A stretch of 32,000 nt of DNA, taken from Candidatus Hadarchaeales archaeon (GTDB lineage: Archaea; Hadarchaeota; Hadarchaeia; Hadarchaeales; Hadarchaeaceae). Of the stretch, positions 1 through 31,782 are shown one piece after another. Under the pieces are notes generated by a model. The model was not told where the DNA came from. It saw nothing but the letters and a program-made list of their open reading frames with translations, and did not search any database. The DNA lies in NCBI GenBank assembly GCA_038823825.1, contig JAWBCC010000001.1, forward strand, positions 360,001 through 392,000, read 5' to 3'. A program made the translations under genes and the position numbers. How positions within the stretch are numbered: the stretch's first letter is position 1; each line of letters starts with the position of its first letter.

Positions 1-573
1 AAATATACAGTTGAGATCCGTAATATATTCAGTCTCTATAAATGTTTTGTGAAACTCGCGATGTGTATCCATTCCGTTTCCGAGACACCACTCAAGATAC
101 GTGAACAGACTGATAGCACGAGAGCGCGCGGAGGAGTTTCTCAACTTTACACGCCATATTTCCAGCGGTTCTCCGATTGGTACAAAAACGAGCATCGAAC
201 AGTCTAAACCAGACCTTGCGCTTTTGATCTCTGTGTATCCCAAACCGTGTACAACCTCGTATTTCTCAAAATCTGGACAGCAGGGTTTCCATCCCAAAGA
301 CCAGAATTCACCATTTTCATCGTCGCGCACATAGATGTACTTTCCATATTCGTCGCGGATGAGATCTTGATGCCAAATGTTCAACCTAGCGAGAGCAGAG
401 TTTCCTCTCCAGCTGAAGCCGCTACCAGCCTGGGAGATGGCTAACCCATAGTCTCCATTACATATTATGTTCACCCATGGCGCTGGAGTGTCGGGCCTAG
501 TTATTACAAATTCCCTGCCGTTTTTCGTGAAGTATCCGTACTTGTTTGACAAAAGTCTCTGCTCCTGTGACAT
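1..573 (-). CDS. GH94-type glycan phosphorylase (cellobiose/chitobiose/cellodextrin phosphorylase-like), N-terminal 191 codons; gene runs off the window start
   Basis: My translation of the minus strand from ATG (complement of 571-573) gives MSQEQRLLSNKYGYFTKNGREFVITRPDTPAPWVNIICNGDYGLAISQAGSGFSWRGNS...LFTYLEWCLGN. This resembles the N-terminal signature of GH94 phosphorylases (YGxF..REYVIT.P.TP.PW.N; F.F.EFCLWN). It is absent from the ORF track because it is open at the window edge. Confidence 0.8.
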   Translation of the reverse strand, partial: MSQEQRLLSNKYGYFTKNGREFVITRPDTPAPWVNIICNGDYGLAISQAGSGFSWRGNSALARLNIWHQDLIRDEYGKYIYVRDDENGEFWSLGWKPCCPDFEKYEVVHGLGYTEIKSARSGLDCSMLVFVPIGEPLEIWRVKLRNSSARSRAISLFTYLEWCLGNGMDTHREFHKTFIETEYITDLNCIF

Positions 574-749: not shown

Positions 750-1925
750 GTGAAAGAAAAGCTTGAAGTTTATCACTTCTGGATAGGGCATGAGCATGCA
801 CCAATAAAAAGTTTCTTGGATTTTTTTGCGAGAAAGTATTCAATTGAGGTCAGAGACATAGCGATGGAATGGGGTATCCATAGCGCGATAACTCAGGCTA
901 AAGTTATGAGAGAGAATCCGCCCGATATCGTAGCCACGGATATAGGACGGAGGCTGGCTGATTACGTTAAAACTGGCGAAATTGCCGAAGTCGAAAAGAT
1001 CTGGTCGAGTAAAAGTCTCAAAAAAGCAATACCGGACTGGATAAAAGAAGCCTGCAGCGTAGACGGCAAAATCTACGGTGTGCCGTCTAAATGTTTCACC
1101 TTTGCAGTCTGGTATCTGAAAAGAGTCTTCAAAAAGTACAACTTAGAACCTCCGGAAAGCTGGGACGAATTTTTAGAAATATGTAAGAAACTTTCCCAGA
1201 AAGGTATCAGACCAATAGTCTCTAGTTCTTGGGAGGTTTCTCTCTGGTTTGAGAACATCTTGGTTCGATTTGTGGGGCCGGATTTTTACAACGCTTTGAT
1301 GAGGGGCGAAGAGAGCTGGCTGGATCCGCGTGTTATCGAGGCTTATGAAACCTTGAGAGAGCTTTCGGAGTATTTCTTGCCAGGACCATTCAGCTATAGT
1401 TTTCGCGAGTCTTGGGAGGCTCTAAACGCTGAAAAAGCGGTCATGCAACTTCAAGGAGATTGGGTTAATGAGATGTGGAAGGTCGGTTATGGCTATAAAC
1501 CGGGTGTTGACTATGACTTTTTCTTGATACCGCCGATAGATGACAAAGTAGGTCATGTCATGATAACCGGTGGAAACGCTTGGTTGATGACTAAAAGAGC
1601 TCCACACAAGAATGAAGCTAAAACTTTCATGACTTTCGCCGCATCCAAAAGGGCCCACGAAATACTGGCAAAGGAAGGGATGGGCATAATGAGCAGAATC
1701 GATGTTCCTGAGCAACTCTATGATCCCGTCTCCTTAAGATTGCTCAAGAGTCTACAGAAATATCCTAATGTGCTTCAAATGGACGCGATACTGCCGGCTA
1801 CCGTGTTGAGCGTGGAAAGATTACAGCAGGCACAAATCGTTTTGGGAGAGGAATTTAGCAGGAAGCGAATAGAGGCGCTTTTAGAAGAGATCCAGAAAGT
1901 AAGTGAAGGAATCCGACAGAGGTGA
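750..1925 (+). CDS. ABC-transporter family-1 extracellular solute-binding protein homolog (sugar-binding type) lacking a signal peptide
   Basis: 391-aa ORF with a GTG start after a GAGAGG SD-like motif. It shows typical SBP_bac_1 features (PESWDEFLEICKKLSQKGIRPI, AVMQLQGDWV, FLIPP...GGNAWLMTK). An in-frame TAA at 732-734 excludes an N-terminal extension. Confidence 0.75.
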   Translation: MKEKLEVYHFWIGHEHAPIKSFLDFFARKYSIEVRDIAMEWGIHSAITQAKVMRENPPDIVATDIGRRLADYVKTGEIAEVEKIWSSKSLKKAIPDWIKEACSVDGKIYGVPSKCFTFAVWYLKRVFKKYNLEPPESWDEFLEICKKLSQKGIRPIVSSSWEVSLWFENILVRFVGPDFYNALMRGEESWLDPRVIEAYETLRELSEYFLPGPFSYSFRESWEALNAEKAVMQLQGDWVNEMWKVGYGYKPGVDYDFFLIPPIDDKVGHVMITGGNAWLMTKRAPHKNEAKTFMTFAASKRAHEILAKEGMGIMSRIDVPEQLYDPVSLRLLKSLQKYPNVLQMDAILPATVLSVERLQQAQIVLGEEFSRKRIEALLEEIQKVSEGIRQR

Positions 1926-1931
1926 ATACAT

Positions 1932-2674
1932 TTGGTGAGAAGGATTTCTTCTGTCATTGGACTTTTTTCGGCTAAGGGAGGCGTAGGAAAGACAGTTCTA
2001 GCCGTGAATTTGGCAACTTTCTCGGCAAACTGCTGAAAGGAAGAGTTGCTCTCATGGAGGTTGGTGGAGCGATACCGACGCTTCACCTTTACTTTGATTT
2101 GCCAGAACCAAAGATTCCACCTAGCAAAATAGTCACTGGCGGAGGCCGGATAGAAGAGGTAATCACAAAGTACGGGAATATCCTGGATATCGTTTCTCTC
2201 TCGTTTGACTATGGATCTGAAAGTGAGATAGGAATGATAATAGACCTTTTGCGTGAGAGATATCCTCTCATAATTCTCGATTCTCCACCAGGATTAGGAA
2301 TGGAGGTCCACTCCAGTCTCAGAGCTTGTACCGAAATAATTATTGTCTGTCAGCCGAAAATCCCCTCCGTGTTACAGGCTCTACAAACGTGTAAAATTGC
2401 AGAGAAGTGGCGTGTTCCGATCGAGCGCGTTATCATCAACCGTGTTCAGGGGGGAAATTTTGAAATCTCTCCAACAGATTTGCGGAAGACATTTGGTGGC
2501 GCCGTGATTTCCATAGTTCCAGAAGACCCCAGGATGCCAGAAAGTGTGACTAAGGGCAAGCCGTTAGTCATCCTAGACCCGGCCTCACCTGCCGCTCAGG
2601 AGATAAATAGGATAGCCCGCAGCATTGCTACAAAGATAAAAAAGAACATGAAACTCCTCTATGCCGTAAAATAG
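1932..2674 (+). pseudogene. MinD/ParA-family P-loop ATPase interrupted by a 1-nt frameshift near 2019-2023
   Basis: The frame starting at TTG 1932/GTG 1935 gives VRRISSVIGLFSAKGGVGKTVLAVNLATFSANC* (deviant Walker A KGGVGKT) and stops at 2034-2036. The -1 frame continues LGKLLKGRVALMEVGG...IILDSPPGLG... to 2674 (ORF-track 2054..2674). Joining the frames at TTC|CTC restores a normal MinD-like N-terminus. Confidence 0.75.
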
Positions 2675-9385: not shown

Positions 9386-9430
9386 ATATATTCCATCAGA
9401 ATTATGTTCATGTTTTTTAAATTGTTCGCT

Positions 9431-9958
9431 TTAGGGGGATCCCGCCGAAGTGAATCTTTTCAAAATTTTCTCGAATTCCCGCTTTTTTTCCTCTGTAACT
9501 TCGATGATTACCGTTCCTTCGCCAGGCTGACCGTATATTACTATCGACCCGATCGGAGAAGTCAACACTGCAGGAATCGTCACAAGATCCTCCTCTCCTT
9601 CAACAATTACTCTCATCTTACCGCTCGCTTTTTCGAAGATATCCCATAGAGCTGGATTTAGGGTCCCAGCTGCATTTTTTATACGAGTTTCTTGGTATGG
9701 TGCATTGCGTAACATGTTCAAAACAGGTTGAAGGACATCTGCTCTCTCTATTTTGAAATCAATCACCAGTATATCGGGAAAAATCTCTTTCTCAAGAAGT
9801 TTTACACTCACGAAATCCCCCACTGATACGATCCTCGGAGGATTCCTTTCTCGAATGAAATTGGCGATTTCCTCGAAATCTTTTTTAACAACACCCAACG
9901 GCTTTTTCAGCTCTTTGCGAAGGTCTTCCGGCAACTCCAAAACATGTTTTGGACGCAC
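9431..9958 (-). CDS. GTP-dependent dephospho-CoA kinase (DUF359/COG1909 family)
   Basis: 175 aa with SVGDFVS and VIVEGEEDLVTIPAVL motifs characteristic of DUF359. Its position next to rps24e is common in archaea. Confidence 0.8.
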   Translation of the reverse strand: MRPKHVLELPEDLRKELKKPLGVVKKDFEEIANFIRERNPPRIVSVGDFVSVKLLEKEIFPDILVIDFKIERADVLQPVLNMLRNAPYQETRIKNAAGTLNPALWDIFEKASGKMRVIVEGEEDLVTIPAVLTSPIGSIVIYGQPGEGTVIIEVTEEKKREFEKILKRFTSAGSP

Positions 9959-9980
9959 AGATTTTCTTATTCTTATCCAA

Positions 9981-11645
9981 TTAATAGATTTTTCTCTGTG
10001 ATTCGAATATTTTGCGAAGCTTCTGCAAAGTGTCCGCTTGCTCGGCAGTCTTTTCCTCGCGAATTCTGTTTATTCTTGCAAACCGGAGGGCCATGCCACA
10101 CGGATATTTTGGGCTTTTTTGAATCTCGTTGTAGAATACTTCCACAACGATCTCCGGCTTAACCCAAACCGTTCGTCCTTCTTCAGAGATTTTTAAGTCT
10201 ATGAGCCTTTTAGTCATCTGCTCGAGTTCTTTATCAGAGAGACCCTTGAACGTTTTCCCAACGATTTCAAATTTTCCGGTTTTCTCGTCTAAAGCTCCAA
10301 GATAGTAGTCTGAGAGATATCTGGCTCTTCGCCCATGACCCCACTCTGCTCCGACTATCACGAGATCCAAAGGCTCCAACACCGGTTTTATTTTTAACCA
10401 TAATTCGCTTCTAGATCCCAGTAGATATTTTCCATGTAGCGCTTTTGCTACAAGCCCCTCATGCCCCTGCTTGATTGCTTCATTCAGAAATTCCTCTGCT
10501 TCCTTTTTGCTTGAAGTAATCATTGCTGGAACTATACAATCTGGTGGGATCAGATTTAGCAGTTTTTCTCTCCTTTGCAGGTATGGCAAGTTTGTCGTGA
10601 CCTGACCGTCTACGTATAAAACGTCAAAAAGTTGTAACTTGAGAAAAATTCCCTTCACAATTTTTGGAACCTCCATCTCACGCCTGAATCTTCTCAAAAG
10701 ATATTGGAAAGGAAGTGGGTTGCCATGTTGGTCGACTGCGATCACTTCTCCGTCCAAGATCGCTTCCTCAGCTTTTATTTCCTGAACCTTTTCAACAATT
10801 TCAGGCAGACAAACAGAAACATCTTTCAAACTTCTGCTGAATACTTTGACAATGCTACCTTTTTTGTGAAGCTGGATGCGGGCGCCATCCAATTTGAATT
10901 CAAAAGAGGTTTGCCCGCCGTGCAGCGATAACGCTTCTTGTACATCCTTGGCTATTTGGGCAAGCATGGGCTCTACTGGCTGAAAAGTGGATATTTGCAG
11001 AGAAGAAATCGCATCCTTTCCCTTTTCTGCAATTCTGGCAGCGACTTCACTTATGTCAGCCATGACTCCAACTGCTCTCTCAATCTCCTCCTCACTGATG
11101 CCGAAAGCTTTTGCCAAGCTGTTCTTGAGCATTTCTCCCTTGAATCCTGTTCTCATCTCTCCAGTCAGTATCTTCACGAGAAGTTTTGCCTCAGTCGGAC
11201 CACAGCGATTTAGCAAGCCTTCCAGCAGTTTTTCTTTTCGCTCATTTGCGCCTTTACCACTAATTTCAGAAATCTTGTGAAGAATGGCCCAAACTTCTTC
11301 AACTGTCAATTGCCTCGGATGAAGCGAGACGGGGGCTATTTTCCTTTTCTCAAATGCTATTTTGGTTGTCTCTCCAAGGTCTCCTGTTTCTTTGAAAAAC
11401 TTCCAGAATTCCGATTCTTTTAACCCCGTGACTTTTAGAACCACTTTTTTGATGGACTCCCAACCCAGTCCTTTGCCCAGTTCACTCGCCGAAGCCGACT
11501 TTCCAAGAAGCATGTCACACACAGGTCTAACTTCTGATTTTTCCAGTCCACTTATAAATCGAGCAACGGTTTCAATCATCACATTTCTTTTTCTCGTTTT
11601 TTCAAGCTTCTCACAAAGTTCGGCAAGCTTAGAGAATTCCATCAA
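9981..11645 (-). CDS. lig: ATP-dependent DNA ligase (paralog A)
   Basis: 554 aa with motif I EFKLDGARIQ (KxDG), LDGEVIA, LQLFDVLY, EGLVAK, LWLKIKP and LRFARINRIREEK. Confidence 0.93.
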   Translation of the reverse strand: MMEFSKLAELCEKLEKTRKRNVMIETVARFISGLEKSEVRPVCDMLLGKSASASELGKGLGWESIKKVVLKVTGLKESEFWKFFKETGDLGETTKIAFEKRKIAPVSLHPRQLTVEEVWAILHKISEISGKGANERKEKLLEGLLNRCGPTEAKLLVKILTGEMRTGFKGEMLKNSLAKAFGISEEEIERAVGVMADISEVAARIAEKGKDAISSLQISTFQPVEPMLAQIAKDVQEALSLHGGQTSFEFKLDGARIQLHKKGSIVKVFSRSLKDVSVCLPEIVEKVQEIKAEEAILDGEVIAVDQHGNPLPFQYLLRRFRREMEVPKIVKGIFLKLQLFDVLYVDGQVTTNLPYLQRREKLLNLIPPDCIVPAMITSSKKEAEEFLNEAIKQGHEGLVAKALHGKYLLGSRSELWLKIKPVLEPLDLVIVGAEWGHGRRARYLSDYYLGALDEKTGKFEIVGKTFKGLSDKELEQMTKRLIDLKISEEGRTVWVKPEIVVEVFYNEIQKSPKYPCGMALRFARINRIREEKTAEQADTLQKLRKIFESQRKIY

Positions 11646-17237: not shown

Positions 17238-18638
17238 ATGCTCAAGCCATTTGAGAAAGCCGCAAGAATTGTGAATGAGAATAGACATAAGGAAATTCTA
17301 GTTATTTCTCACTCCGATGCCGACGGTGTTTGTGCAGCAGCAATAATATCAAAGTGTCTTGAGCGTGAGGAAATTGAGTATTCTGTGAAGTTTGTCGAAA
17401 CACCCCACAAGGAATCTTTCAAAGACATGCCGTCAGCAGATCTAACAATTTTGGCAGACGTTGGTAGTTCTCTTTTAGATCATCTTTGTGAAAGATTTTC
17501 GAACAGCAAATTGATTATCCTAGATCACCATGAAATAGATCAAGACATACATCAGGAGAATCTTGTGCACTTAAATGCTCATCTTCTAGGCATGGATGGG
17601 GGAATCGAAATAAGCGGAGCGGGAATGGCGTACCTTTTTGCTCTCGCCCTCTACGAGAAAAACGTCGATCTTTCTCATTTGGCGATCATTGGTGCACTGG
17701 GTGATGCTCAAGATCTATGGGGAGAGCTTAAGGGTTATAACAGAAGAATAGCTGAAATCGCAGTAAAACTCGGACTTCTACGAAGGGACATAGATTTACT
17801 TCTTTATGGCAGACATTCAAGACCAATCTACAAGGCATTGGCAAATTTTACCGATCCGTTCATTCCGGGCGTGAGTAATTCCCCTTCTGGTTGTCTCCAA
17901 TTGCTTAAAGAACTTGGAATAGAAATCAAGAACGTCACAAAATTTAGACGACCTGTCGATCTTACTGAAGAGGAAAAGAGCCGTCTTGCTTCAGAAATCA
18001 TCGTACGAGCGAGTCTAAGTGCTCCTCCAGAGTTGTCTCCATATGTTCCGAGGTTAGTACTCGGAGAAGTTTTTTCGCTTCCGCAAGAGAGCGAGGAAAG
18101 TGGTCTGAAGGATGTTGACGAGTTTGCTACCTCTTTAAACGCGGTCGCTAAGCAAAATCAACCAATTTTGGGTTTAGAGGTTGCCAAAGGAGACAGAGGA
18201 GGATATTATGCGCAAATGCAAAAGTTATTGAACAGATATAGAAGAAAAATTGCTGAGAGCCTAGGCTATCTAGAAGGAACAGAATTTTACAGTGGCCCAT
18301 TGGGATATTTGCAGTTCTTTGATGCGACGGAATACGCGAGCGAGAATTTAGTTGGAACGATTGTTGGGATGTGCTTGTCTTCTGGTTTCGTCGATCCGTA
18401 CAGACCGGTCCTTGGAATGGTCAGAAAAAACGGATTTGCAAAAATTTCGACAAGATGCTCCAAATTATTGGCTCTTAAAAACATTAACTTGGCTAAGGCA
18501 ATTCGGGAAACCTGTAGAGAAATTGGAGGTGAAGGAGGAGGTCATGCAACAGCCGGCGGAGCCCTGATCGAGGAAGATAAGATCAACAAATTTATAGAAG
18601 TTTTTGAAAGAAATCTCCTTATGCAGCACCAGACTTAG
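17238..18638 (+). CDS. DHH/DHHA1 phosphoesterase, archaeal RecJ/GAN (Cdc45-like) nuclease homolog
   Basis: 466 aa with SHSDADGVCAAAI (DxD), ILDHHE (DHH) and GGEGGGHATAGGA (DHHA1 GGGH). The length is typical of archaeal RecJ-like proteins. Confidence 0.82.
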   Translation: MLKPFEKAARIVNENRHKEILVISHSDADGVCAAAIISKCLEREEIEYSVKFVETPHKESFKDMPSADLTILADVGSSLLDHLCERFSNSKLIILDHHEIDQDIHQENLVHLNAHLLGMDGGIEISGAGMAYLFALALYEKNVDLSHLAIIGALGDAQDLWGELKGYNRRIAEIAVKLGLLRRDIDLLLYGRHSRPIYKALANFTDPFIPGVSNSPSGCLQLLKELGIEIKNVTKFRRPVDLTEEEKSRLASEIIVRASLSAPPELSPYVPRLVLGEVFSLPQESEESGLKDVDEFATSLNAVAKQNQPILGLEVAKGDRGGYYAQMQKLLNRYRRKIAESLGYLEGTEFYSGPLGYLQFFDATEYASENLVGTIVGMCLSSGFVDPYRPVLGMVRKNGFAKISTRCSKLLALKNINLAKAIRETCREIGGEGGGHATAGGALIEEDKINKFIEVFERNLLMQHQT

Positions 18639-20337
18639 CTTTTCTCTCTTCCTGTCTTCTGTAGAGTTCTGCAATTTCGTTTATCGTGGCTGCTTCTTCG
18701 GGACGTTTGTCCTCTCTTATTCTGATAAATCGTGGGAACCTTAAACCAAATCCACTTGTATGTTTCTCTTCCGGACTGGCTTGGATTTCCTCGTATGCGA
18801 CTTCGAAGACTATTTTCGGTTCTACGTGGGCGTCGACGTCGATTTCGATATCCACAGAGGGATCAGGTTTTTGCAAAATGAGTGGTTGAAACAATTCCGT
18901 CAAATCTTTTAGATCCTCATCTGTGAAACCCGAACCACATTTTGTCACGGTCTTGAATTTACCAGATGCCGGATCTCGGGCCGCCAAAATGTAGCTACCA
19001 AAGACTCCTGCTCTTTTGCCCTTCCCATACAGAACACCAACAACAACCAAATCCAGCGTTTCTAAAACAGGTTTTATTTTTAACCAAAGGAATTCTCTTC
19101 TCCCAGCCCTGTAGGGAGAGTTCAATTCCTTCGCGAGTAGGCCTTCATGACCGATTTTTATCGCGTAGTCCGAGAATTCTCTGATCTCCTCTTCTCTCGA
19201 AAGAACTTTTTGTTCGACGATGAAGACTTTTTCGTTTTCCTCGATTATTTTTTCGAGTATCTTTCTTCTTTCAACATACGGTCGTTCTAACATGGCTCTG
19301 TCATCGACTAACAGGACATCGAAAAGGTGAAGCTCCACTGGTATTTGCTTCGCCGTTTTCTCGATTCCATATTTTCTCCTTCTCTTCAAAACTTCTTGAA
19401 ATGGCATGGGTTTTTTTGTTTCTGGATCAATTGCTACGAGCTCTCCGTCGACTATCGCTTTCTCCGCTTTTATCGCTCTGCGGAGAGGATATATCATGTC
19501 TGGAAACATGCTTGTATAGTCTTCCATTCTTCTTGTGAAGAGAATTACTTTCTCTCCATCTTTATGTGCTTGGATTCTTATACCGTCGAGTTTAATCTCA
19601 AAAGCCGCTTTACCGTTCATTCTCTGAAGGACTTCCGCTATACTTTCCGCTCGTTGGGCAAGCATTGGACTAACTGGACGCCCGACTACCACCGAAAGAC
19701 CCCTAACTCCTTCTATACCTTTCTCGGCGGCGGTTTTTGCAACCAGCGCATAATCTGATGTAAGCATGTATGCCTTCTCTACATCTTCAGGGGGTATGTT
19801 GAAAGCATCCGCTATTGCATCGCGCAATCTACCCTCTGCCACACCAATTCTGAGGTCGCCCAAAACCGTCCTAACAATGAATTTTGCTTCAATTGGTTGA
19901 GCACTTGTTAGAAGGGAGGCTACTCGCTCAATTTTTCTATCAATAGAGCTCTCTCCGGTAATCTCCGGCAATCTTTTTATCGTCTCAAAGACGTCAGAGA
20001 CTGTTAGTGGTTTTTGGAATAGCGAAACTTGTTTCTTTTTCTTTATCAGCTCTTGTGCAACTTCGCCCAAGTCCCCCATTTTTTTAAGAAGATGTTCGAC
20101 CTGTGAGGTTGGATAACCAGACGCGAGCGAGATCGCTTTTTTAAGCTGTTGTATTCCAACGCCCGTTTCTTTAGAGACATATGTCGGCCAAGCCCTTCCA
20201 AGGAGAAGAAGCACTACTTTTTCGATGTATTCAGGAGGAGTGTTCTGCAGTAAAGACACGATTATCTCATTTTTTTCGAGATAAGATGAAGTTTTTTCTA
20301 ATTTTTCGAAGGTTTCAGCTAAGGTAAGGTATTTCAT
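18619..20337 (-). CDS. lig: ATP-dependent DNA ligase (paralog B)
   Basis: Motif I FEIKLDGIRIQ, then VDGELVA, LHLFDVLL, EGLLAK, LWLKIKP and LRFPRFIRIREDK. I prefer ATG 20337 (MKYLTLAETFEKLEKT aligns with paralog A MMEFSKLAELCEKLEKT) over the TTG at 20364. The gene overlaps the recJ-like 3' end by 20 nt. Confidence 0.92.
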   Translation of the reverse strand: MKYLTLAETFEKLEKTSSYLEKNEIIVSLLQNTPPEYIEKVVLLLLGRAWPTYVSKETGVGIQQLKKAISLASGYPTSQVEHLLKKMGDLGEVAQELIKKKKQVSLFQKPLTVSDVFETIKRLPEITGESSIDRKIERVASLLTSAQPIEAKFIVRTVLGDLRIGVAEGRLRDAIADAFNIPPEDVEKAYMLTSDYALVAKTAAEKGIEGVRGLSVVVGRPVSPMLAQRAESIAEVLQRMNGKAAFEIKLDGIRIQAHKDGEKVILFTRRMEDYTSMFPDMIYPLRRAIKAEKAIVDGELVAIDPETKKPMPFQEVLKRRRKYGIEKTAKQIPVELHLFDVLLVDDRAMLERPYVERRKILEKIIEENEKVFIVEQKVLSREEEIREFSDYAIKIGHEGLLAKELNSPYRAGRREFLWLKIKPVLETLDLVVVGVLYGKGKRAGVFGSYILAARDPASGKFKTVTKCGSGFTDEDLKDLTELFQPLILQKPDPSVDIEIDVDAHVEPKIVFEVAYEEIQASPEEKHTSGFGLRFPRFIRIREDKRPEEAATINEIAELYRRQEERKAKSGAA

Positions 20338-20390
20338 TATCTCATTCAGCGGTTTGTTTTTCAATCCTAAAATTGTTTCCGTTTTCTTTA

Positions 20391-21212
20391 TTATTGACTA
20401 TCCATCACGTGTCCTGATGGTTGAATGGTTAGAACTATTTTCCCATTTTGAAATACCCTCACATGTCCATCTTCTTGTGAAACTACCACACCAATCGATT
20501 TTGTCGCACGTGTCATCGCAGCTACTGCGTAGTGTCTGCTTCCCAATCCGCGGACATCGACTTTCCTATTGGCGTCCAGATGTCTGCAACATGCTCGTAT
20601 TATACCGTTTGAGTCTACTACAAATGCTCCATCATGCGTCGCTGCTATTTTTGCTATAATCGGATAGTTATCTTTCTTTTTAATGTCGCGGGCCTGATGG
20701 GGTAGTGGATCTGACTCGAGTTGATGAGATAAGCGCATAACAGTTTTCCAATCCCCAATGATAAATGCTGCTCCCACCCTCATGTTGTTATAGGAGGTAT
20801 TAGCGATGTAAAGCGCAAGTTTTATGGCATGTATAACTGTTTCGTCGAAAGAGAATATTTTTTCCACGTCGTCCACGATTTTTAAGTGAATTGCGTGTGA
20901 ACCATCGAGATATACAACCTTTTCACCTTTTGACAGGACCCCCTGCCTTACGCAAACAGCGAGTGCGAACTCCGCTTCCTTTTCCGTATTTTCAGATTTC
21001 AGGGGAACGTGAACTACAGGATAGCTCGTAGAAAAAGACTTTTCATCAGAAGATCCGGTGCAGATAATGATTTTTTTGGAAAAAATTGAAAGCTCCTTGA
21101 GAATTTCTTGAGTGGGAATGTTGACGTTGTCGACACGAACCACTACCGCATCTGCTTCAATTAGTGTGGCAAGAGAAACGGCCGCCTTGGCCAGAGCCTG
21201 GGGAGCTTCCAT
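20391..21212 (-). CDS. dacZ: Diadenylate cyclase, DacZ type (pyruvate-kinase-C-like N-terminal domain plus DAC/DisA_N domain)
   Basis: 273 aa. The C-terminal half has GAAFIIGD...HDGAFVVDSNGIIRACCRHLD...GLGSRHYAVAAMTRATKSIGVVVSQEDGHVRVFQNG, which fits the DAC consensus (DGA, (G)xRHRxA, VVSxExG). A strong SD (GGAGAGGAGG) precedes the ATG. Confidence 0.85.
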   Translation of the reverse strand: MEAPQALAKAAVSLATLIEADAVVVRVDNVNIPTQEILKELSIFSKKIIICTGSSDEKSFSTSYPVVHVPLKSENTEKEAEFALAVCVRQGVLSKGEKVVYLDGSHAIHLKIVDDVEKIFSFDETVIHAIKLALYIANTSYNNMRVGAAFIIGDWKTVMRLSHQLESDPLPHQARDIKKKDNYPIIAKIAATHDGAFVVDSNGIIRACCRHLDANRKVDVRGLGSRHYAVAAMTRATKSIGVVVSQEDGHVRVFQNGKIVLTIQPSGHVMDSQ

Positions 21213-23737: not shown

Positions 23738-24229
23738 ATGAGAGCCGAGGTTTTACTCGGGATTGGTCTTCGACTTCTCTCAATATTTCTTATCTTAGGG
23801 CCGATTCTAATTGCGTTTTCTGCGAGCAACTGGGATCTCAAGAAAACTTTGATCCAAGAAGATGAAATTAAAGAAATTGAGGAAAAGTTTTCTGGTCTAA
23901 ATTTCGAAAATCTAGAATTAAGCGTCGATGAGGGCGCTATTGAATATAACGAAGCCACAAAGTTCGCAAGAATACCTGTCATGATATATTCCAGAATGAA
24001 GTTCTCTTTCGATATTCTAGAACTTGAAGTTTCTGTGAATTACGATGGTCATTCAACCTCGCTCAGCATGCAGGAGAACAGAGTCAAGATCACTCCATAT
24101 GAAAATACAAGATTTCACCTAGTCGGTGTCGTGGCGGAGGATCCAAGAGGAAAAAGCGTTGAGACCGAATTAAAACTTGCAGTTGTTGAAAAACTTGGCG
24201 TAACACTTGAAATAAAACCGAGGAAGTGA
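23738..24229 (+). CDS. Single-pass membrane protein with a predicted beta-rich ectodomain (hypothetical)
   Basis: ATG 23738 is preceded by GGGGAGA. The N-terminal TM helix is LLGIGLRLLSIFLILGPILIAF. The remainder alternates hydrophobic and polar residues (FSFDILELEVSVNYDG..., ELKLAVVEKLGVTLEI). I recognise no motif. Confidence 0.55.
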   Translation: MRAEVLLGIGLRLLSIFLILGPILIAFSASNWDLKKTLIQEDEIKEIEEKFSGLNFENLELSVDEGAIEYNEATKFARIPVMIYSRMKFSFDILELEVSVNYDGHSTSLSMQENRVKITPYENTRFHLVGVVAEDPRGKSVETELKLAVVEKLGVTLEIKPRK

Positions 24230-24233
24230 AACC

Positions 24234-24866
24234 ATGAAGAGGAAAAACGCGATTAACTGGTTTGGTGTTGTCTTTGGGGTTCTTATGATCGTGCTGCCAT
24301 TTGCGGGCAGCTGGTGGATGCTGAAGGTAGGTGACAATGCCGCCTCGGTAGCCATTTCTCCCTTCAACTTTGATGTGAAAGTTGTTGGAGTTTCAGTACG
24401 TTCTGTGCTCGTTGATTATATTTTGCTATTTTCAAAAATAACCTTCATGATCGCTGGCGTGTTTTCGATTTTGGCTTCTCTTTTCGCTGACCGTTGGTGG
24501 TCCGCCAAACTGCTAAGGTTTGGAGTAATGAAACCATTCTGGGGTATACTAACTCTAATCATCATACTGATCGTTGGGACCATCTTTGCTAACGCGGTGC
24601 TTCCAAAGATAGTTTCCGGCATGATTCGAGAGGGTACTGAAGGAGGTTTACAGATCAAAATAAATGTGCCATTTCTCTCAGGAAGTTCCAAGTCTGCAAT
24701 CGTAACAGGAGATGCTACTGTTAGCACAGAGATAAGGACCGGATTCCAGATGGCGTTTCTATTGGCGGTTATTACTGCTGGTGTCGGTATAGCTTCTAGA
24801 ATTTACCATCGAAGATTCTTGGAGAAGGAGGAGATTAAAAAGGAAAAGGTCGAAAAGAAAAAATAA
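24234..24866 (+). CDS. Polytopic membrane protein with a K/E-rich C-terminal tail (hypothetical)
   Basis: 210 aa, starting 4 nt after the previous stop. It has at least four hydrophobic segments (WFGVVFGVLMIVLPF; ITFMIAGVFSILASLF; FWGILTLIIILIVGTIF; MAFLLAVITAGVGIA) and the tail EKEEIKKEKVEKKK. Confidence 0.6.
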   Translation: MKRKNAINWFGVVFGVLMIVLPFAGSWWMLKVGDNAASVAISPFNFDVKVVGVSVRSVLVDYILLFSKITFMIAGVFSILASLFADRWWSAKLLRFGVMKPFWGILTLIIILIVGTIFANAVLPKIVSGMIREGTEGGLQIKINVPFLSGSSKSAIVTGDATVSTEIRTGFQMAFLLAVITAGVGIASRIYHRRFLEKEEIKKEKVEKKK

Positions 24867-24973
24867 TTTATAATTTCTTCTGAGGCAGCGAGATCTACTT
24901 AATATTTTCGTAAATCTGCGGAAAATCCCACAGTTTTTGGCTGTTTTTAAGTCCCCATTCCGAGTTTTGCTCG

Positions 24974-26671
24974 ATGGAGAAAACCACAGCAATAGTGTTT
25001 GCAAGCTTAGCGACTTTATTACTCATGATTCCGCTGATATCGGCGCCCGAGCTCATCTATGACGATTTCAACGATGAGACTCTTGGTACCAACACTGGGG
25101 GCGCTGCTGGAGCGATGTCATATGATGGAAATCACGACCCCACTATTAGCTTTGTGCAAGGATACGAGGGCAGGGCTCTAGCACTTACGTATAATCTTCC
25201 ACCAAATCAATGGGCCGGCTATTGGAGTTTCTTCCGATCGGATGAAGTGGGATACGATCTTAGAGGATATACGGATCTCCAGATGTGGGTAAGGGGCGCA
25301 AGCGGGGGGGAAATCTTCAAGGTCGAAATGAAAGACACAAACAACAGATATCGTGCGATATATGTAACACTCGTTCCAGGTTTCGAGAGTGGGGCGACTA
25401 CATCTTGGCAGAAGCTTGTAATTCCCCTTTACAATTTCGCCAGCGTAGTGGACCTCGGCAATGTAAAACAGCTCAACATCGTCTTCGACAGGGCCCCGTG
25501 GCAGGGGACCGTACATCTGGACAAAATAACCTTCACCACAGATTCTCCAGCCCGCAGTCTACCAGCCGGTCTAATAGTTGACGATTACAACGACGGAAGT
25601 GGGCCAAACAATCTAGGTGGTGGCTGCGGGATAATGGATCCAGATCCAAATGGTGGTCCTGAGTGGATCACGGAAGAGTATGTCGGCGGAGCGTATGAGG
25701 GGCTCGGTTGTCTGAAACTCACATACAATCGAGGAACCTCCAGTTGGGTCGGTTACTGGAGTTTCTTGCACCCCGACCAACATGGTGTCGATGTTTCTGA
25801 TTACAAGTATCTCAGCATGTATGTAAAAGGAGCAAGCGGAGGTGAATCATTCAGGGTGGAGTTGAAGGATAGTTCAAACAAAGTATCGAAACAGGTTATC
25901 AGTGGGATTACTTCCTCTTGGAAGGAATTCAGATTGGACCTTTCTAGCTTCTCTGGAGTTAGTCTGACGAGCCTCGCCATGGTAAACTTTGTCATGGACT
26001 TACCACCGAACTCTGGAACAGTTTATATAGACCTCGTTAGGTTCATTCGTGAAAACGAGAATGCCCCTCAGCAACCTGTCGACAACACTATCGTAAGAAT
26101 ATTTCCAGAAAATCAAAACGTCAGAACCGGGGAAAACTTTTCCGTACAAATCGGAATCATTCCAGTGACTGGTGTGGCTGGCGTTCAGTGTACATTGAGG
26201 TTCAATCCACAGATTCTGGGAGTTCTCGATGTAACCGAGGGTGACTTCCTGAAGCAAGGAGGAGCCAGTAGCTTCTTCCAAGTGATTTCCTTGGATAACA
26301 CGACGGGAAAAATTGAAATCACCGGTGTACGGATCAACGGATCTGCCAACTCCCCCGGAGTTTTTGCGACAGTGCAATTAAAAGCAAAGGATAATCAGGG
26401 GACATCACAGCTCTGGCTTGAGGATGTTATCCTTGGAGATGAGAACGGACAGGTTCTTCCAGTAACACTTAGGGGGGCAGTCGTTACTGTAGAAGCATAT
26501 GCTCCTTGGGACGTAAACCGGGATGGAAAAGTAAACATTCAGGACATGCTGGCTGTGATATCTAAATGGAAACAAACCGGTCCTGCTGGTTGGATAGCTG
26601 AGGATATAAACAAAGACGGAAAAATAAACGTGCTTGACCTCATCCTCATTGGACAGCATTGGACAGGATGA
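24974..26671 (+). CDS. Secreted modular protein: signal peptide, 2x CBM11/CIA30-like beta-sandwich modules, cohesin, type-I-like dockerin
   Basis: Signal-like N-terminus MEKTTAIVFASLATLLLMIPLISAP. Two homologous ~160-aa modules (aa ~27-188 and ~199-358) begin [IV]YDDFND / IVDDYNDG and end G-T-V-[HY]-[LI]-D. The cohesin-like module is aa ~371-507 (VRIFPENQNVRTGENFSVQIGI..VAGVQCTLRFNPQILGVLDVTEGDFL...GVFATVQLKAK). The C-terminal dockerin duplicate is WDVNRDGKVNIQDMLAVI...EDINKDGKINVLDLILI. Confidence 0.8.
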   Translation: MEKTTAIVFASLATLLLMIPLISAPELIYDDFNDETLGTNTGGAAGAMSYDGNHDPTISFVQGYEGRALALTYNLPPNQWAGYWSFFRSDEVGYDLRGYTDLQMWVRGASGGEIFKVEMKDTNNRYRAIYVTLVPGFESGATTSWQKLVIPLYNFASVVDLGNVKQLNIVFDRAPWQGTVHLDKITFTTDSPARSLPAGLIVDDYNDGSGPNNLGGGCGIMDPDPNGGPEWITEEYVGGAYEGLGCLKLTYNRGTSSWVGYWSFLHPDQHGVDVSDYKYLSMYVKGASGGESFRVELKDSSNKVSKQVISGITSSWKEFRLDLSSFSGVSLTSLAMVNFVMDLPPNSGTVYIDLVRFIRENENAPQQPVDNTIVRIFPENQNVRTGENFSVQIGIIPVTGVAGVQCTLRFNPQILGVLDVTEGDFLKQGGASSFFQVISLDNTTGKIEITGVRINGSANSPGVFATVQLKAKDNQGTSQLWLEDVILGDENGQVLPVTLRGAVVTVEAYAPWDVNRDGKVNIQDMLAVISKWKQTGPAGWIAEDINKDGKINVLDLILIGQHWTG

Positions 26672-26675
26672 AAGG

Positions 26676-27302
26676 TTGAAAACATGCTGGTTATTTGCGC
26701 TTGCCATACTGATTATTCTCATCTCTCAGCCCCTCTGTCAAGCCGAAATTACGAGGGTTTACGTAAAACCTAAAGAAGTTAATGTAGAAAATGGAAAGGT
26801 CTTCGAAATAGAAATAGTGGCAAACCCTTCCACCAAAATAGCGGGCTATCAGTTTTCTATCGGCTACGATTCATCGGTTCTTGACTTTCTTGCCATACGA
26901 GAGGGAAATTTCTTCAGGAAGTATGGTTTAAACACGTACTTCTACGAGGGGGATGTGGACAGAACGGCGGGAGTTTTAAGAGACGTCGTGTGCGTGGTGT
27001 TGGGAGAGGGCGGAAGCTCGGAGAATGGAACTTTGGCAATTGTTAGATTTCGGGCAAAGAAAACCGGACAATCAACAATTACCCTTTTTGATGTGATTGC
27101 CGGTAATCCGCTTGGAGAACAGGTAGAGGTAAACGTTCAGGGTGGTTCGGTTAAGGTTTTCACAAGCGGTATTGCCCCCTGGCTAGTTTTTTTAGTCGTG
27201 ACAATTGTTATTGTATTGTTAGTTCTCATATTTTTGCTGTTTCGCAGACGTTCTGGTCAAAGAAAAAAATCGAGAGAGCCAACCGTTTGGGAAAGTATTT
27301 GA
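26676..27302 (+). CDS. Membrane-anchored cohesin-domain protein (signal peptide, cohesin, C-terminal TM helix)
   Basis: I prefer the TTG at 26676, 4 nt after the upstream stop, which gives (M)KTCWLFALAILIILISQPLCQA|EITR. The alternative ATG at 26634 overlaps the upstream gene. The cohesin-like module is VYVKPKEVNVENGKVFEIEIVAN..IAGYQFSIGYDSSVLDFLAIREGNFF...GTLAIVRFRAKKTG. The C-terminal TM plus stop-transfer is IAPWLVFLVVTIVIVLLVLIFLLFRRRSGQRKK. Confidence 0.78.
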   Translation: MKTCWLFALAILIILISQPLCQAEITRVYVKPKEVNVENGKVFEIEIVANPSTKIAGYQFSIGYDSSVLDFLAIREGNFFRKYGLNTYFYEGDVDRTAGVLRDVVCVVLGEGGSSENGTLAIVRFRAKKTGQSTITLFDVIAGNPLGEQVEVNVQGGSVKVFTSGIAPWLVFLVVTIVIVLLVLIFLLFRRRSGQRKKSREPTVWESI

Positions 27303-29511: not shown

Positions 29512-31782
29512 TCACGGGGGTTGAGTGGATAGCCAGATGTCATCCCAGTATGCACTCGTAGCGGGAGGTGTCTGCCCAGTTGTGTATCTAGCAGTAATGA
29601 AAACGCGCGCCCTAACCGCATTTTGTGGAGCCGTTACTTGGAAAGATACCAAAGTCCAACTATCAAAGGCTGTTGATGCAAAACCGCTACTCGGTGTCTG
29701 CACATAACCGTCATCATTCTCCCAGTATGGATACCATCTTACTCTGATGAATAGAGTGTACTGGCTTGGACTTGCCCCTCCTCCTGGATTTACGAGGTAG
29801 TAATACCCGGCTAGATAATACGTTTGTCCAGGGATGAAGCTCGTGATATTGTCTGAGGTCACATACGCGGTATACGAGGAGGAGTTAACCACTTGCTTTG
29901 CGGAGTAACTACCAGTTCTTGCCCTTTCGCTAGACCTAGAAGCGTTGGTTCCAAAACTCCAGTAACCGGTCTGCTCGAAGCTTGGGTTCTGGACGAGTTG
30001 TAATGGCGGCTCTGGCAAGGTTTCTACTCTAACATAGAAAGTGTTTGTATAGTTTCTGGCCGCTACGTTGCTTGGAATATCTAATCTCCACTCTATCTGT
30101 TTCTGCATATTTTCGCCATATTGGATGTTATTCCAAACATTTTCGTAGATGGTGCTCAGTGATACGGTTCTACCGCCGATCGCCTTGGCCGCACTGGCAG
30201 ATATCGTGTATCCGTCAGACGTGAAATCCCCGGCCGCTCTGACCTTAATCGTGAAGTTTCTGTTTGAGGACACAATAACCGTCATCGGACTCTGGGTTGC
30301 GTAAACGCTCTGTCCTTTGTAGCCGCTGAAGGAGAGGGTGTATGTGCTCAAAGACATCTCGAGGTAGACCTGAACCATAATCGCGTTGATATTCTCCAAA
30401 TAGTTATCTAGACCGGTGTTATCGACGGCTCTGACGTATAGATTCCACATTCCCGGAGCCGCGATTTTTGAAAGTTTCACCCTAAAGATTGCAGTGTATG
30501 TCTTGGTTTCAGAATTCTCTAAGACTGAACATCCAGATGTGTCTATGTAAGCAGACCCAAGTGGGCAACTAAACTGCCAAGCTCCCGCGCTCTTTGAAGC
30601 ACTCCATGTGTAGTGATTTCTGATGTTGTCTGACGCTGTATGGCTGAGCGAATTTTCATGTGCTACGAGATATATGTTCTCGAGCTCCATCTCTCCTTCC
30701 CAAACAGTAACTGTCACGTTAAACCAGCAGTTTGGCATTATGGTTGAATTTTCCGGAACTACCATCAGAACTGATGGGATTTCTATCAGAGGATAGGCGC
30801 AGAATTTATTACCACCACCGGCCCAGTCTGGTGGAGCACCCTGCCAATAAAAGATGGTGTTGTTAACGAAACCCAGTCTGTTTCCGTTATACTCGCCGAC
30901 GGGGTAGGGAAGATTTTCTAGACTCTCCCAAGTATTTGTCGAAATCTGATATCTGTAGAAACCATAGCCTGGCTGCTCAAGATAGGAACCACCGCTAAGA
31001 GCGTAAATGTAATCGGACTTGGTTGGAATCCAGAGGAGAGATCCTCCATCCCCTACCCCACCTGGATCCGGTATCGGACTAAGATTTTCCCAACTGTTTG
31101 TTTCAATGTTGTATCTCCAGAAATCCTGCAAAGGTGAAGTTTCATAATATTCTCCTCTTAAAGCGTAGAGGTAAGCTCCGCCGGTCCAGACAAGCGAACA
31201 ACCATCATCGGTGCCACCTGGTGGGTTAGCCAATACCTGCCAGGTGTTGGTCTGTGGGTTGTAACGGGCGAAAGTTGTTCCGTGTGTTGAGCTTCCCAAG
31301 ATCGCATAAATTCTTCCATCATAACCACACCAACAGAGAGCATCTCCCGCACCCTGTGGACCAGGAGTGTTCTCCAAGAACTCCCAGCTGTTCGAAGGAA
31401 TGGAATATCTCAGAAAGATTGTGCGGTTGGAATCCTGATATCTCGCCCCCGCCAGAGCGTATATGTAATTTTCATTATCCCAGGCAAGAGCGGTACCATT
31501 TCTGAAAAGACCTTGGGGTAGCATGGACGTGTTTATCTCTGTCCACTCGTTTGCAAATGGATCATACCTCCAGAAATGAACATTATCTAGGACATCGTAG
31601 CACCTGATTATGTAGATATAGTTTCCTACAGAGACCAAGGCTTGACCGTATCCGCCCGGCTGTGGGGTTGGGGCTTTCTCAATCCACACTGGCTCGGAAC
31701 TGATAGGGGGAGCAGAGAAAAGCATTGTGAGTATCATGAAAAAGGGCAGAGAGAGCCCCAGCACCAGAAGCTTTTTTCTCAT
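29512..31782 (-). CDS. Large secreted protein: signal peptide, Kelch-type beta-propeller (~6 blades), central beta-rich region, C-terminal CBM4_9/galactose-binding-like domain
   Basis: 756 aa with N-terminal MRKKLLVLGLSLPFFMILTMLFSAP. Blade motifs repeat: F-W-RYDPFANEWTE, FLRYSIPSNSWEF, FARYNPQTNTWQV, FWRYNIETNSWEN, FYRYQISTNTWES, each followed by IYA[LI].G-type strands. The C-terminal ~160 aa begin LVQNPSFEQTGYWSF...ARTGSYSAKQ. Confidence 0.8.
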   Translation of the reverse strand: MRKKLLVLGLSLPFFMILTMLFSAPPISSEPVWIEKAPTPQPGGYGQALVSVGNYIYIIRCYDVLDNVHFWRYDPFANEWTEINTSMLPQGLFRNGTALAWDNENYIYALAGARYQDSNRTIFLRYSIPSNSWEFLENTPGPQGAGDALCWCGYDGRIYAILGSSTHGTTFARYNPQTNTWQVLANPPGGTDDGCSLVWTGGAYLYALRGEYYETSPLQDFWRYNIETNSWENLSPIPDPGGVGDGGSLLWIPTKSDYIYALSGGSYLEQPGYGFYRYQISTNTWESLENLPYPVGEYNGNRLGFVNNTIFYWQGAPPDWAGGGNKFCAYPLIEIPSVLMVVPENSTIMPNCWFNVTVTVWEGEMELENIYLVAHENSLSHTASDNIRNHYTWSASKSAGAWQFSCPLGSAYIDTSGCSVLENSETKTYTAIFRVKLSKIAAPGMWNLYVRAVDNTGLDNYLENINAIMVQVYLEMSLSTYTLSFSGYKGQSVYATQSPMTVIVSSNRNFTIKVRAAGDFTSDGYTISASAAKAIGGRTVSLSTIYENVWNNIQYGENMQKQIEWRLDIPSNVAARNYTNTFYVRVETLPEPPLQLVQNPSFEQTGYWSFGTNASRSSERARTGSYSAKQVVNSSSYTAYVTSDNITSFIPGQTYYLAGYYYLVNPGGGASPSQYTLFIRVRWYPYWENDDGYVQTPSSGFASTAFDSWTLVSFQVTAPQNAVRARVFITARYTTGQTPPATSAYWDDIWLSTQPP

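Follow-up and report, generated by a model that had tools for sequence, protein, structure and literature searches.

What do complementary cohesin and dockerin modules accomplish in an archaeon when neither of them is attached to an enzyme? This question is raised by two adjacent genes of a Candidatus Hadarchaeales archaeon (GenBank assembly GCA_038823825.1, contig JAWBCC010000001.1). The Hadarchaeota are uncultured subsurface archaea whose dealings with organic matter are known from genomes only. The two genes lie in a stretch of 32,000 nucleotides (nt; positions 360,001 to 392,000 of the contig, forward strand), which was analyzed as a whole and is referred to as the window. Open reading frame 1 (ORF1; 24974..26671, + strand) encodes a predicted secreted, non-catalytic protein of 565 amino acids (aa) with two modules resembling carbohydrate-binding module (CBM) family CBM30, one cohesin and one dockerin. 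ORF2 (26676..27302, + strand) encodes 208 aa, starts with TTG and is predicted to be a single cohesin with a membrane anchor. We consider it rather probable that both products form a two-gene cell-surface display module, in which the dockerin of ORF1 sits in the anchored cohesin of ORF2 and the CBM-like modules capture a glycan that feeds a pathway of a GH94 phosphorylase and a sugar substrate-binding protein (SBP).

The original prediction, made from the sequence alone, had described ORF1 as a signal peptide followed by two CBM-like beta-sandwiches, a cohesin and a dockerin with two calcium-binding repeats. This architecture was confirmed by Pfam matches to Cohesin, Dockerin_1 and CBM_11, all above the gathering cut-offs, and by an AlphaFold2 (AF2) model with four folded domains and a mean predicted local distance difference test score (pLDDT) of 86.8. 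The signal peptide (aa 1-24, ending in IPLISA before PE; 24974..25045, +) coincides with a hydrophobic stretch at aa 3-29 in the hydropathy profile and with an AF2 helix at aa 6-17, with pLDDT < 50 for aa 1-23. It is followed by N1 (aa 25-192; 25046..25549, +), recognized by Pfam and Foldseek, and N2 (aa 199-360; 25568..26053, +), recognized by Pfam, AF2 and Foldseek, both of which are CBM30/CBM11-like beta-sandwiches. ORF1 matched CBM30 (PF21582; E 9e-11, 42.4 bits, cut-off 27) as well as CBM_11 (PF03425; E 1.5e-10, 41.9 bits, cut-off 27) in two stretches each. Among solved structures, the N-terminal modules resembled CBM11 (1v0a/6r31; TM-score, TMt, 0.67-0.72) and the CBM22 tandem 4xup, which ranks first among the Foldseek matches of ORF1. 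They thus combine profile scores above the gathering threshold with a beta-jelly-roll fold, as is typical of CBM30/CBM11. A poorly conserved, flexible hinge (about aa 361-369; 26054..26080, +) separates them from the cohesin; its pLDDT is about 55 (about aa 361-370) and falls below 50 at aa 366-369.

The ORF1 cohesin (aa 370-507; 26081..26494, +) matched Pfam Cohesin (PF00963) over aa 382-499 with an E value of 8.5e-13 (49.1 bits, cut-off 24.1). Foldseek aligned it with the solved cohesins 2xdh, 1aoh, 6kgc and others (TMt 0.75-0.78), in line with a nine-stranded beta-sandwich. The Archaeoglobus fulgidus cohesin 2xdh ranks second in the search with ORF1 (TMt 0.78) and is its best cohesin match, and the cohesin of the adaptor scaffoldin ScaC (5lxv) is among the top matches. 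Only the residues YAPW join the cohesin to the dockerin (aa 508-565; 26495..26668, +), and this junction is modelled with a pLDDT of 77-85. The dockerin matched Dockerin_1 (PF00404) over aa 513-559 (E 9.9e-10, 38.9 bits, cut-off 22.9) and ends in GQHWTG directly before the TGA stop codon (26669-26671). It contains two calcium loops of 12 residues, DVNRDGKVNIQD (aa 513-524) and DINKDGKINVLD (aa 544-555), with D or N at positions 1, 3, 5 and 12 and an AF2 helix after each loop (aa 522-529 and 553-561). As had been predicted, the calcium-coordinating positions are kept: D513, N515, D517, D524, D544, D548, G549 and D555 are at least 90% conserved in an alignment of 36 family members, and the D/N/G positions of the loops are invariant or nearly so in 35 diverse proteins in which a cohesin is directly followed by a dockerin (hereafter dyads).

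For ORF2, Pfam, hydropathy and AF2 agree with the predicted order of signal peptide, single cohesin, transmembrane (TM) helix and RRR motif. The signal peptide (aa 1-22, ending in PLCQA before EI; 26676..26741, +) is hydrophobic over aa 1-26 and contains an AF2 helix at aa 3-16. The cohesin (aa 23-162; 26742..27161, +) covers positions 3-138 of the 139 positions of PF00963 (E 9.6e-11, 42.5 bits, cut-off 24.1). In the AF2 model (mean pLDDT 90.5), it is an all-beta domain, with a beta-sandwich at aa 26-162 (pLDDT 95-99); the fold search covered ORF1 only. The TM helix (aa 168-194; 27177..27257, +), seen both as the hydropathy maximum (3.69) and as an AF2 helix, begins about 5 residues past the last cohesin strand and is directly followed by RRRSGQRKK within a short, basic cytoplasmic tail of about 14 aa (the RRRSGQRKKSREPTVWESI region; 27258..27299, +). 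While both proteins possess an N-terminal hydrophobic segment, a strong C-terminal one is found in ORF2 only. Neither an SLH domain nor an LPXTG motif is present in ORF2, and a permissive scan over four anchor proteins yielded no PGF-CTERM/archaeosortase-type signal, a PACE-CTERM match of 14.6 bits being insignificant (cut-off 110). Pfam and NCBIfam revealed no catalytic domain in either protein, in agreement with the earlier statement that both lack a glycoside hydrolase; ORF1, ORF2, the two membrane proteins encoded upstream and the GH94 protein of a related locus (L004, see below) had no NCBIfam match at all.

The distance of 4 nt between both genes holds with the TTG at 26676, which opens MKTCWLFALAILIILISQPLCQA, a typical signal peptide. 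An alternative in-frame TTG at 26634, which would make ORF2 overlap ORF1, was rejected: we accepted 26676 because the signal peptide begins there and because the orthologues in three related loci (L001, L006, L007) likewise start 4 nt after the upstream stop codon. ORF1 and ORF2 are probably co-translated. Upstream of ORF1 lies an A/T-rich intergenic region of 107 nt (24867..24973, +, read from the sequence) with a TTTTTAAG element about 27 nt 5' of the ATG, and this region may represent an archaeal promoter for both genes.

The pair is conserved throughout the Hadarchaeal relatives that we found. Orthologues of ORF1 share 98, 77, 73 and 55% identity; the closest one (P0001, 98%) stems from another Candidatus Hadarchaeales archaeon (GCA_038858875.1) and the others from metagenome-assembled genomes (MAGs) of Hadarchaeota/Hadesarchaea. 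In the relatives with 98, 77 and 73% identity, the locus is collinear, with a single-pass membrane protein, a four-TM protein, ORF1 and ORF2 in this order, and both the gene order and the spacing of 4 nt are retained (L001, L006, L007). Identity to the orthologues amounts to 73-82% for N1, 75-81% for N2, 68% for the ORF1 cohesin and 79% for the dockerin, compared to 25-33% for the signal peptide and 38-62% for the hinge. By these differences, purifying selection maintains all four modules of ORF1, but not its signal peptide and linkers (25-62%). Identity to orthologues is lower for the cohesin of ORF2 (53-61%), which evolves faster. With the ORF1 cohesin it shares no more than 31% identity, and each of the two forms an orthologous clade of its own in the cohesin tree. 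By these sequence comparisons they are diverged paralogues, and at such low identity one cannot take for granted that they share a specificity.

In more distant Hadarchaea (55-57% identity; L003, L004/L005, L011), the ORF1 homologue occupies another site. The order in L003 and L004 is GH94 (-), SBP (+), a MinD/CbiA-like ATPase (+), the ORF1 homologue, a larger anchor protein and a RepL-like helix-turn-helix gene. This larger anchor comprises a signal peptide, a cohesin, a CBM30-like module, a PKD-like module, a TM helix and a cytoplasmic tail of about 90 aa. The window contains the GH94, SBP, MinD-like and RepL-like genes as well (the last 47% identical), and the cohesin-dockerin pair is not inserted between them; it therefore occupies a different site in each of the two lineages. 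In both L003 and L011 there is a second pair, whose short anchor consists of signal peptide, cohesin and TM helix like ORF2. With regard to the larger anchors (L003:7085-8926 and L004:7525-9381; 613 and 618 aa), we note that the cytoplasmic tail is conserved, and one may conjecture that the neighbouring MinD-like ATPase positions the anchor via this tail.

Next, we asked how far this arrangement extends beyond the Hadarchaeota. Species-representative genomes were scanned for the dockerin subtype of ORF1 with a pattern derived from 8 closer sequences, which captures one subtype and so falls short of counting all dockerins. A tblastn search with a query of cohesin plus dockerin served to confirm the loci, and custom hidden Markov models (HMMs) to annotate them. 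The resulting 33 loci belong to Hadarchaeota, Dehalococcoidia, Methanophagales (ANME-1), Thermoplasmatota, Planctomycetia, Poribacteria, Peptococcaceae and Deltaproteobacteria. In 16 of them, a gene whose product terminates in a dockerin has, immediately downstream on the same strand, a gene beginning with a signal peptide and a cohesin. Altogether, 19 junctions showed this order and only one the reverse, with gaps mostly between -13 and +10 nt, and a TM helix terminates eight of the terminal cohesin proteins. This polarity cannot be a sampling artefact, since loci with a dockerin only also passed the confirmation and the flanks were symmetrical.

Three loci (L022, L025, L039) are cascades, in which a cargo-dockerin protein is followed by a cohesin-X-dockerin protein and a cohesin protein, the last cohesin of L025 being TM-anchored. 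Across all the loci surveyed, the cargo consists mainly of binding modules of the immunoglobulin-like (Ig), leucine-rich repeat (LRR), malectin or LamG type. Enzymes occur as well: in a Dehalococcoidia MAG, a gene for GH113, a CBM30-like module and a dockerin lies directly 5' of a signal peptide-cohesin gene (L013:5654-9406 and 9416-10600), and a Thermoplasmatota MAG encodes GH123, LamG and dockerin, followed by cohesin-X-dockerin and cohesin (L039:459-7925). According to its sequence, the latter would be an archaeal cascade with a dockerin-bearing glycoside hydrolase. In the Hadarchaeal representative genomes, this narrow pattern detected no second locus of the ORF1 dockerin subtype beyond the pair locus, the MAGs being incomplete, and there was no dockerin-bearing enzyme from Hadarchaea among the homologues retrieved.

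The building blocks themselves are widespread, with 5699 matches (E < 1e-3) in a HMMER search of the full library. Of the top 150 cluster representatives, 75 carry the two modules as a fusion; the dyad is mostly C-terminal, often ends in GQHWTG and has a gap of typically 0-3 residues (modal value 1 aa) between both modules. A search with a profile of the dyad added 116 proteins (P0168-P0283), 95 of which show the order cohesin-dockerin, and many of these proteins are just 200-250 aa long and contain no further module. The match of the dyad profile also spans the junction between module and dockerin in the X-DocII of CipA (3kcp, 2b59). Several dyad loci have no partner gene nearby, and in three bacterial or ANME loci (L014, L025, L029) the two cohesins of a locus group with each other in the cohesin tree. 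As a further observation, a large family of minimal proteins of about 200-360 aa, consisting of signal peptide, cohesin and dockerin (L009-L041 and P0168-P0283), with 0-3 aa between the two modules and in many cases GQHWTG at the end, is present in Dehalococcoidia, ANME-1, Methanoperedens, Thermoplasmatota, Poribacteria and Planctomycetia.

Experimental precedents exist for the individual parts of this arrangement. For A. fulgidus, high-affinity, specific binding was demonstrated between the dockerin that ends ORF2375 (aa 432-506) and the N-terminal cohesin (aa 29-162) of its neighbour ORF2376 (PMC9705933). Consequently, the original statement that the partners of archaeal cohesins and dockerins are largely undefined does not apply to this species, where they were defined biochemically. 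The A. fulgidus proteins resemble the pair described here in being archaeal and encoded by adjacent genes, the product ending in a dockerin preceding the signal peptide-cohesin product, and in lacking associated cellulases; binding was shown there, and for the pair of the window the gene order of the surveyed loci (19 junctions against 1) provides comparative-genomic support. Sequence similarity between the two systems is remote (2xdh reaches E 0.0016 against the dyad profile). ORF2375 reportedly carries a cohesin too, which would give two cohesins and one dockerin as in the window, and both A. fulgidus cohesins are said to bind the single dockerin. To our knowledge, neither CBM-like modules nor sugar-utilization neighbours have been reported for the A. 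fulgidus proteins.

The closest functional parallel is provided by Ruminococcus flavefaciens CttA, a non-catalytic protein with two CBMs and a C-terminal X module-dockerin dyad, which docks to the single cohesin of the anchored ScaE encoded in the same sca locus and was proposed to serve substrate targeting and bacterial adhesion (PMC5301203). Both systems combine two consecutive CBM modules and a C-terminal module-dockerin dyad, in which a beta-sandwich directly precedes the dockerin, with a single-cohesin surface anchor encoded alongside. However, the dockerin of CttA is preceded by an X module and that of ORF1 by a canonical cohesin, and while ScaE is attached to peptidoglycan via sortase and LPXTG, ORF2 is predicted to be held by its C-terminal TM helix. 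The host is archaeal here, with no multi-cohesin scaffoldin or dockerin-bearing enzymes in view. In contrast to the type III modules of R. flavefaciens, the ORF1 dockerin is nearest in sequence to the type II X-dockerin of CipA (3kcp, 2b59) and to 2y3n of P. cellulosolvens, and the fold of its cohesin is nearest to type-I-like and A. fulgidus cohesins. With a cohesin in place of the X module and a TM anchor in place of sortase attachment, the pair would resemble CttA-ScaE in its operation without belonging to that family.

ORF1 also shares features with the adaptor ScaC, whose chain holds one cohesin and, at the C-terminus, a dockerin that docks to a different cohesin (PMC5301203). Both are single polypeptides with one module of each kind, and the ScaC cohesin ranks among the top structural matches, as mentioned above. 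In contrast, ScaC switches specificity and recruits hemicellulases in a large cellulosome, and ORF1 contains CBMs and virtually no linker between cohesin and dockerin. Single cohesins with a C-terminal TM helix were described in some Firmicutes as 'non-SLH anchoring scaffoldins' and proposed to be membrane anchors (PMC11557425). ANME archaea possess abundant non-cellulolytic cohesin and dockerin proteins (PMC9012536), and the ANME-1 locus L014 shows the same order of dyad and cohesin, although neither the operon rule nor CBM30-like cargo was described in that survey. In view of CttA-ScaE and the TM-anchored single cohesins, the novelty of the pair had initially been overrated. Each component by itself has been seen before, and the new aspects are the lineage, the combination of two CBM30-like modules, cohesin-dockerin dyad and TM anchor, the association with GH94 in relatives and the gene-order rule across phyla. 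Our literature search found nothing linking Hadarchaeota or Dehalococcoidia to cohesin or dockerin modules.

What was observed directly are the identities and folds of the domains, the topology signals, the adjacency of the genes and the conservation of their order, and we propose to read these data as follows. ORF2 would be exported and its cohesin held about 5 residues above the membrane by the TM helix and the basic stop-transfer tail, and ORF1 would leave the cell by Sec. The calcium-loaded dockerin of ORF1 would then plug into the ORF2 cohesin, and the two putative glycan-binding modules, mounted on their flexible hinge, would thereby be tethered to the cell surface. The tethered modules could capture a poly- or oligosaccharide of the beta-glucan type, or hold the cell on such a glycan, and the captured sugar would feed the sugar ABC importer and the intracellular GH94 phosphorylase. 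That the anchored cohesin holds the dockerin at the surface had been suggested by the original prediction; the 16 of 33 loci with the same order, the A. fulgidus precedent and the conservation in Hadarchaeota all speak in favor of this reading. The cohesin of ORF1 could offer a second socket, either for another ORF1 molecule or for an unlinked dockerin protein, or could support the dockerin structurally. Since no linker separates it from the dockerin, it may partly be a structural buttress like an X module, and the profile match across the CipA X-DocII junction, together with the near-zero linker, hints at such a role. Its canonical sequence and fold and its conservation argue that it is still a functional socket.

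Carbohydrate binding by N1 and N2 is suggested by their family membership, their fold and the presence of the module on GH144-like and GH113 enzymes. Pfam CBM30 matched 32 of 35 members of the N-module family, relatives reached E 2.5e-50, and the module co-occurs with GH144-like, malectin and GH113 domains. One of these proteins, the GH144-like P0009, carries the N1 module at 39-42% identity; being bacterial, it supports a CBM role but says nothing on Hadarchaeal enzymes. As to the nature of the carbohydrate, the GH94/SBP neighbourhood in the sister lineages suggests that a beta-glucan-type substrate is captured, imported and phosphorolysed. The beta-glucan lifestyle, at first only hinted at by the genes at the other end of the window, thus gains support from the distant Hadarchaea, in which the pair adjoins the GH94, SBP and MinD-like genes.

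Several points weigh against a tether that serves sugar uptake. The similarity to CBM30/CBM11 is moderate (42 bits; TMt about 0.7), and the window encodes no extracellular glycanase. In this genome, the pair is located 22 kb from the GH94 locus, so that the link to sugar uptake rests on two related lineages, and the MinD-like gene of the GH94 locus is frameshifted here. Furthermore, a cohesin positioned on the membrane, perhaps beneath an S-layer, may have limited access to insoluble substrates, and ORF1 and ORF2 could be adjacent because both arose from one duplication, without being partners.

Some alternatives would assign a different role to the modules. In one, which is compatible with the tether and extends it, the dockerin of ORF1 would bind the cohesin of the next ORF1 molecule in trans, so that a head-to-tail, CBM-decorated filament or matrix would grow from ORF2 as a primer and serve adhesion or biofilm formation. 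Already envisaged in the original prediction as chains or lattices, this daisy chain is given a fairly low probability here. It would fit the wide distribution of linker-less C-terminal dyads, the many proteins that are merely cohesin and dockerin, the loci without a nearby partner gene and the finding that the subtype scan of Hadarchaeal representatives matched the pair locus only; moreover, the clustering of same-locus cohesins in L014, L025 and L029 is the expectation if both bind one dockerin. In the window, however, the two cohesins are strongly diverged and belong to separate clades, the cascades L022, L025 and L039 resemble hierarchies of cargo, adaptor and cohesin rather than homopolymers, and the scan relied on a narrow pattern and incomplete MAGs. 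A generalization of this idea, namely that the linker-less dyad is a self-complementary unit of non-covalent, calcium-dependent polymerization and that the minimal signal peptide-cohesin-dockerin proteins of Dehalococcoidia, ANME-1, Thermoplasmatota and Hadarchaeota are subunits of an undescribed class of extracellular polymers, appears doubtful to us. A comparably low probability is assigned to ORF1 being a ScaC-like adaptor, whose cohesin would recruit dockerin-bearing hydrolases encoded at other loci to a minimal cellulosome-like complex on ORF2. Enzyme-bearing versions of the arrangement do exist in L013 (GH113) and L039 (GH123), and the ORF1 cohesin is conserved (68%) and structurally similar to the cohesin of ScaC (5lxv), but the window contains no other dockerin gene, the Hadarchaeal representative genomes yielded no other locus of this dockerin subtype, and none of the retrieved homologues is a Hadarchaeal dockerin-bearing enzyme.

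It is unlikely that the pair belongs to the architecture of the cell envelope itself, with the CBM-like modules binding the cell's own glycans, such as S-layer N-glycans or exopolysaccharide, and the two proteins bridging membrane and envelope. The short distance between the ORF2 cohesin and the membrane, by which the complex would begin inside the pseudo-periplasm, would suit this role, as would the cargo of other lineages (mostly Ig, LRR or lectin-like adhesion modules) and the two membrane proteins that, instead of sugar-utilization genes, always precede the pair in the clade of the window. Against it stand the GH94-SBP genes adjoining the pair in two distant Hadarchaeal lineages and the occurrence of the N module on secreted glycanases. 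Even less probable, and in our view very unlikely, is that both genes became neighbours by duplication and domain shuffling and that their modules bind partners elsewhere or none. The divergence of the paralogous cohesins would be explained in this way, but the tight, polar order (19 against 1, mostly with gaps of at most 10 nt) recurs across phyla and is kept at all levels of divergence in Hadarchaeota, and partners encoded by adjacent genes were proven in A. fulgidus (PMC9705933). A classical cellulosome was rejected: there is one cohesin per protein, no dockerin-bearing enzyme in the window or seen in Hadarchaeal relatives, and no SLH or sortase anchor.

If the surface tether described above is correct, a conserved, non-catalytic and membrane-tethered putative glycan binder would provide a handle on polysaccharide capture by Hadarchaea. 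The recurrence of an operon of dockerin-borne cargo and TM-anchored cohesin in archaea and Dehalococcoidia would further allow cognate cohesin-dockerin pairs to be predicted from gene order, and these orthogonal, possibly thermostable pairs could be a source for protein display. In these lineages, judging from the anchors observed, a TM helix seems to take the place of SLH- or sortase-based attachment. Prokaryotes of these lineages mostly lack peptidoglycan, and TM anchoring is perhaps tied to this absence. As the principles are well studied, the value of these findings is incremental unless self-polymerization turns out to be true, in which case a new kind of extracellular assembly would be at hand.

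In addition to the pair, we examined its surroundings. Genes for TiaS, two ATP-dependent DNA ligases, DUF359 and an aIF-2B-family protein mark the window as archaeal. Directly upstream of ORF1 lie the genes of two conserved membrane proteins, a single-pass protein of 163 aa with a beta-rich ectodomain (23738..24229, +; recognized by alignment and by synteny with L001, L002, L006 and L007) and a multi-pass protein with about four TM helices (24234..24866, +), which begins 4 nt after the previous gene and ends 107 nt before ORF1. Neither matched Pfam or NCBIfam, and although they always precede the pair in the clade of the window, they are absent from the GH94-linked arrangement. At the other end, the presence of a GH94 phosphorylase and a sugar-binding protein, as originally proposed, was verified: the 5' part of the GH94 gene (1..573, -; first 191 aa, continuing beyond the window) matched PF06165 with E 1.2e-57, and the carbohydrate ABC-transporter SBP (750..1925, +) matched SBP_bac_1 with E 1.2e-22, besides weak NCBIfam matches to sugar SBPs. 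Custom HMMs, run against every ORF of 70 aa or more, detected no further cohesin, dockerin or CBM30-like module in the window.

The MinD/CbiA-like ATPase gene beside the SBP is split (about 1926-2674, +). Its Walker A motif SAKGGVGKT (at about nt 1974) lies in another frame, which reaches a stop codon, and the listed ORF (2054..2674) covers only the C-terminal two thirds of the protein. The split reflects either a frameshift, a pseudogene or an error in sequencing. L003 and L004 have an uninterrupted copy (257-258 aa), located directly 5' of the cohesin-dockerin pair.

Among the remaining genes of the window, the two DNA ligases are full-length paralogues with N-terminal, adenylation and C-terminal domains, encoded less than 9 kb apart (9981-11645, -, and 18619-20364, -). 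A protein of 756 aa (29512-31782, -) combines N-terminal Kelch repeats with a C-terminal region of about 450 aa that has no family match, and it is kept in the 98% identical relative (L007). Finally, the protein encoded at 20391-21212 (-) carries a DisA-type diadenylate cyclase (DAC) domain, which suggests signalling by cyclic di-AMP in this archaeon.

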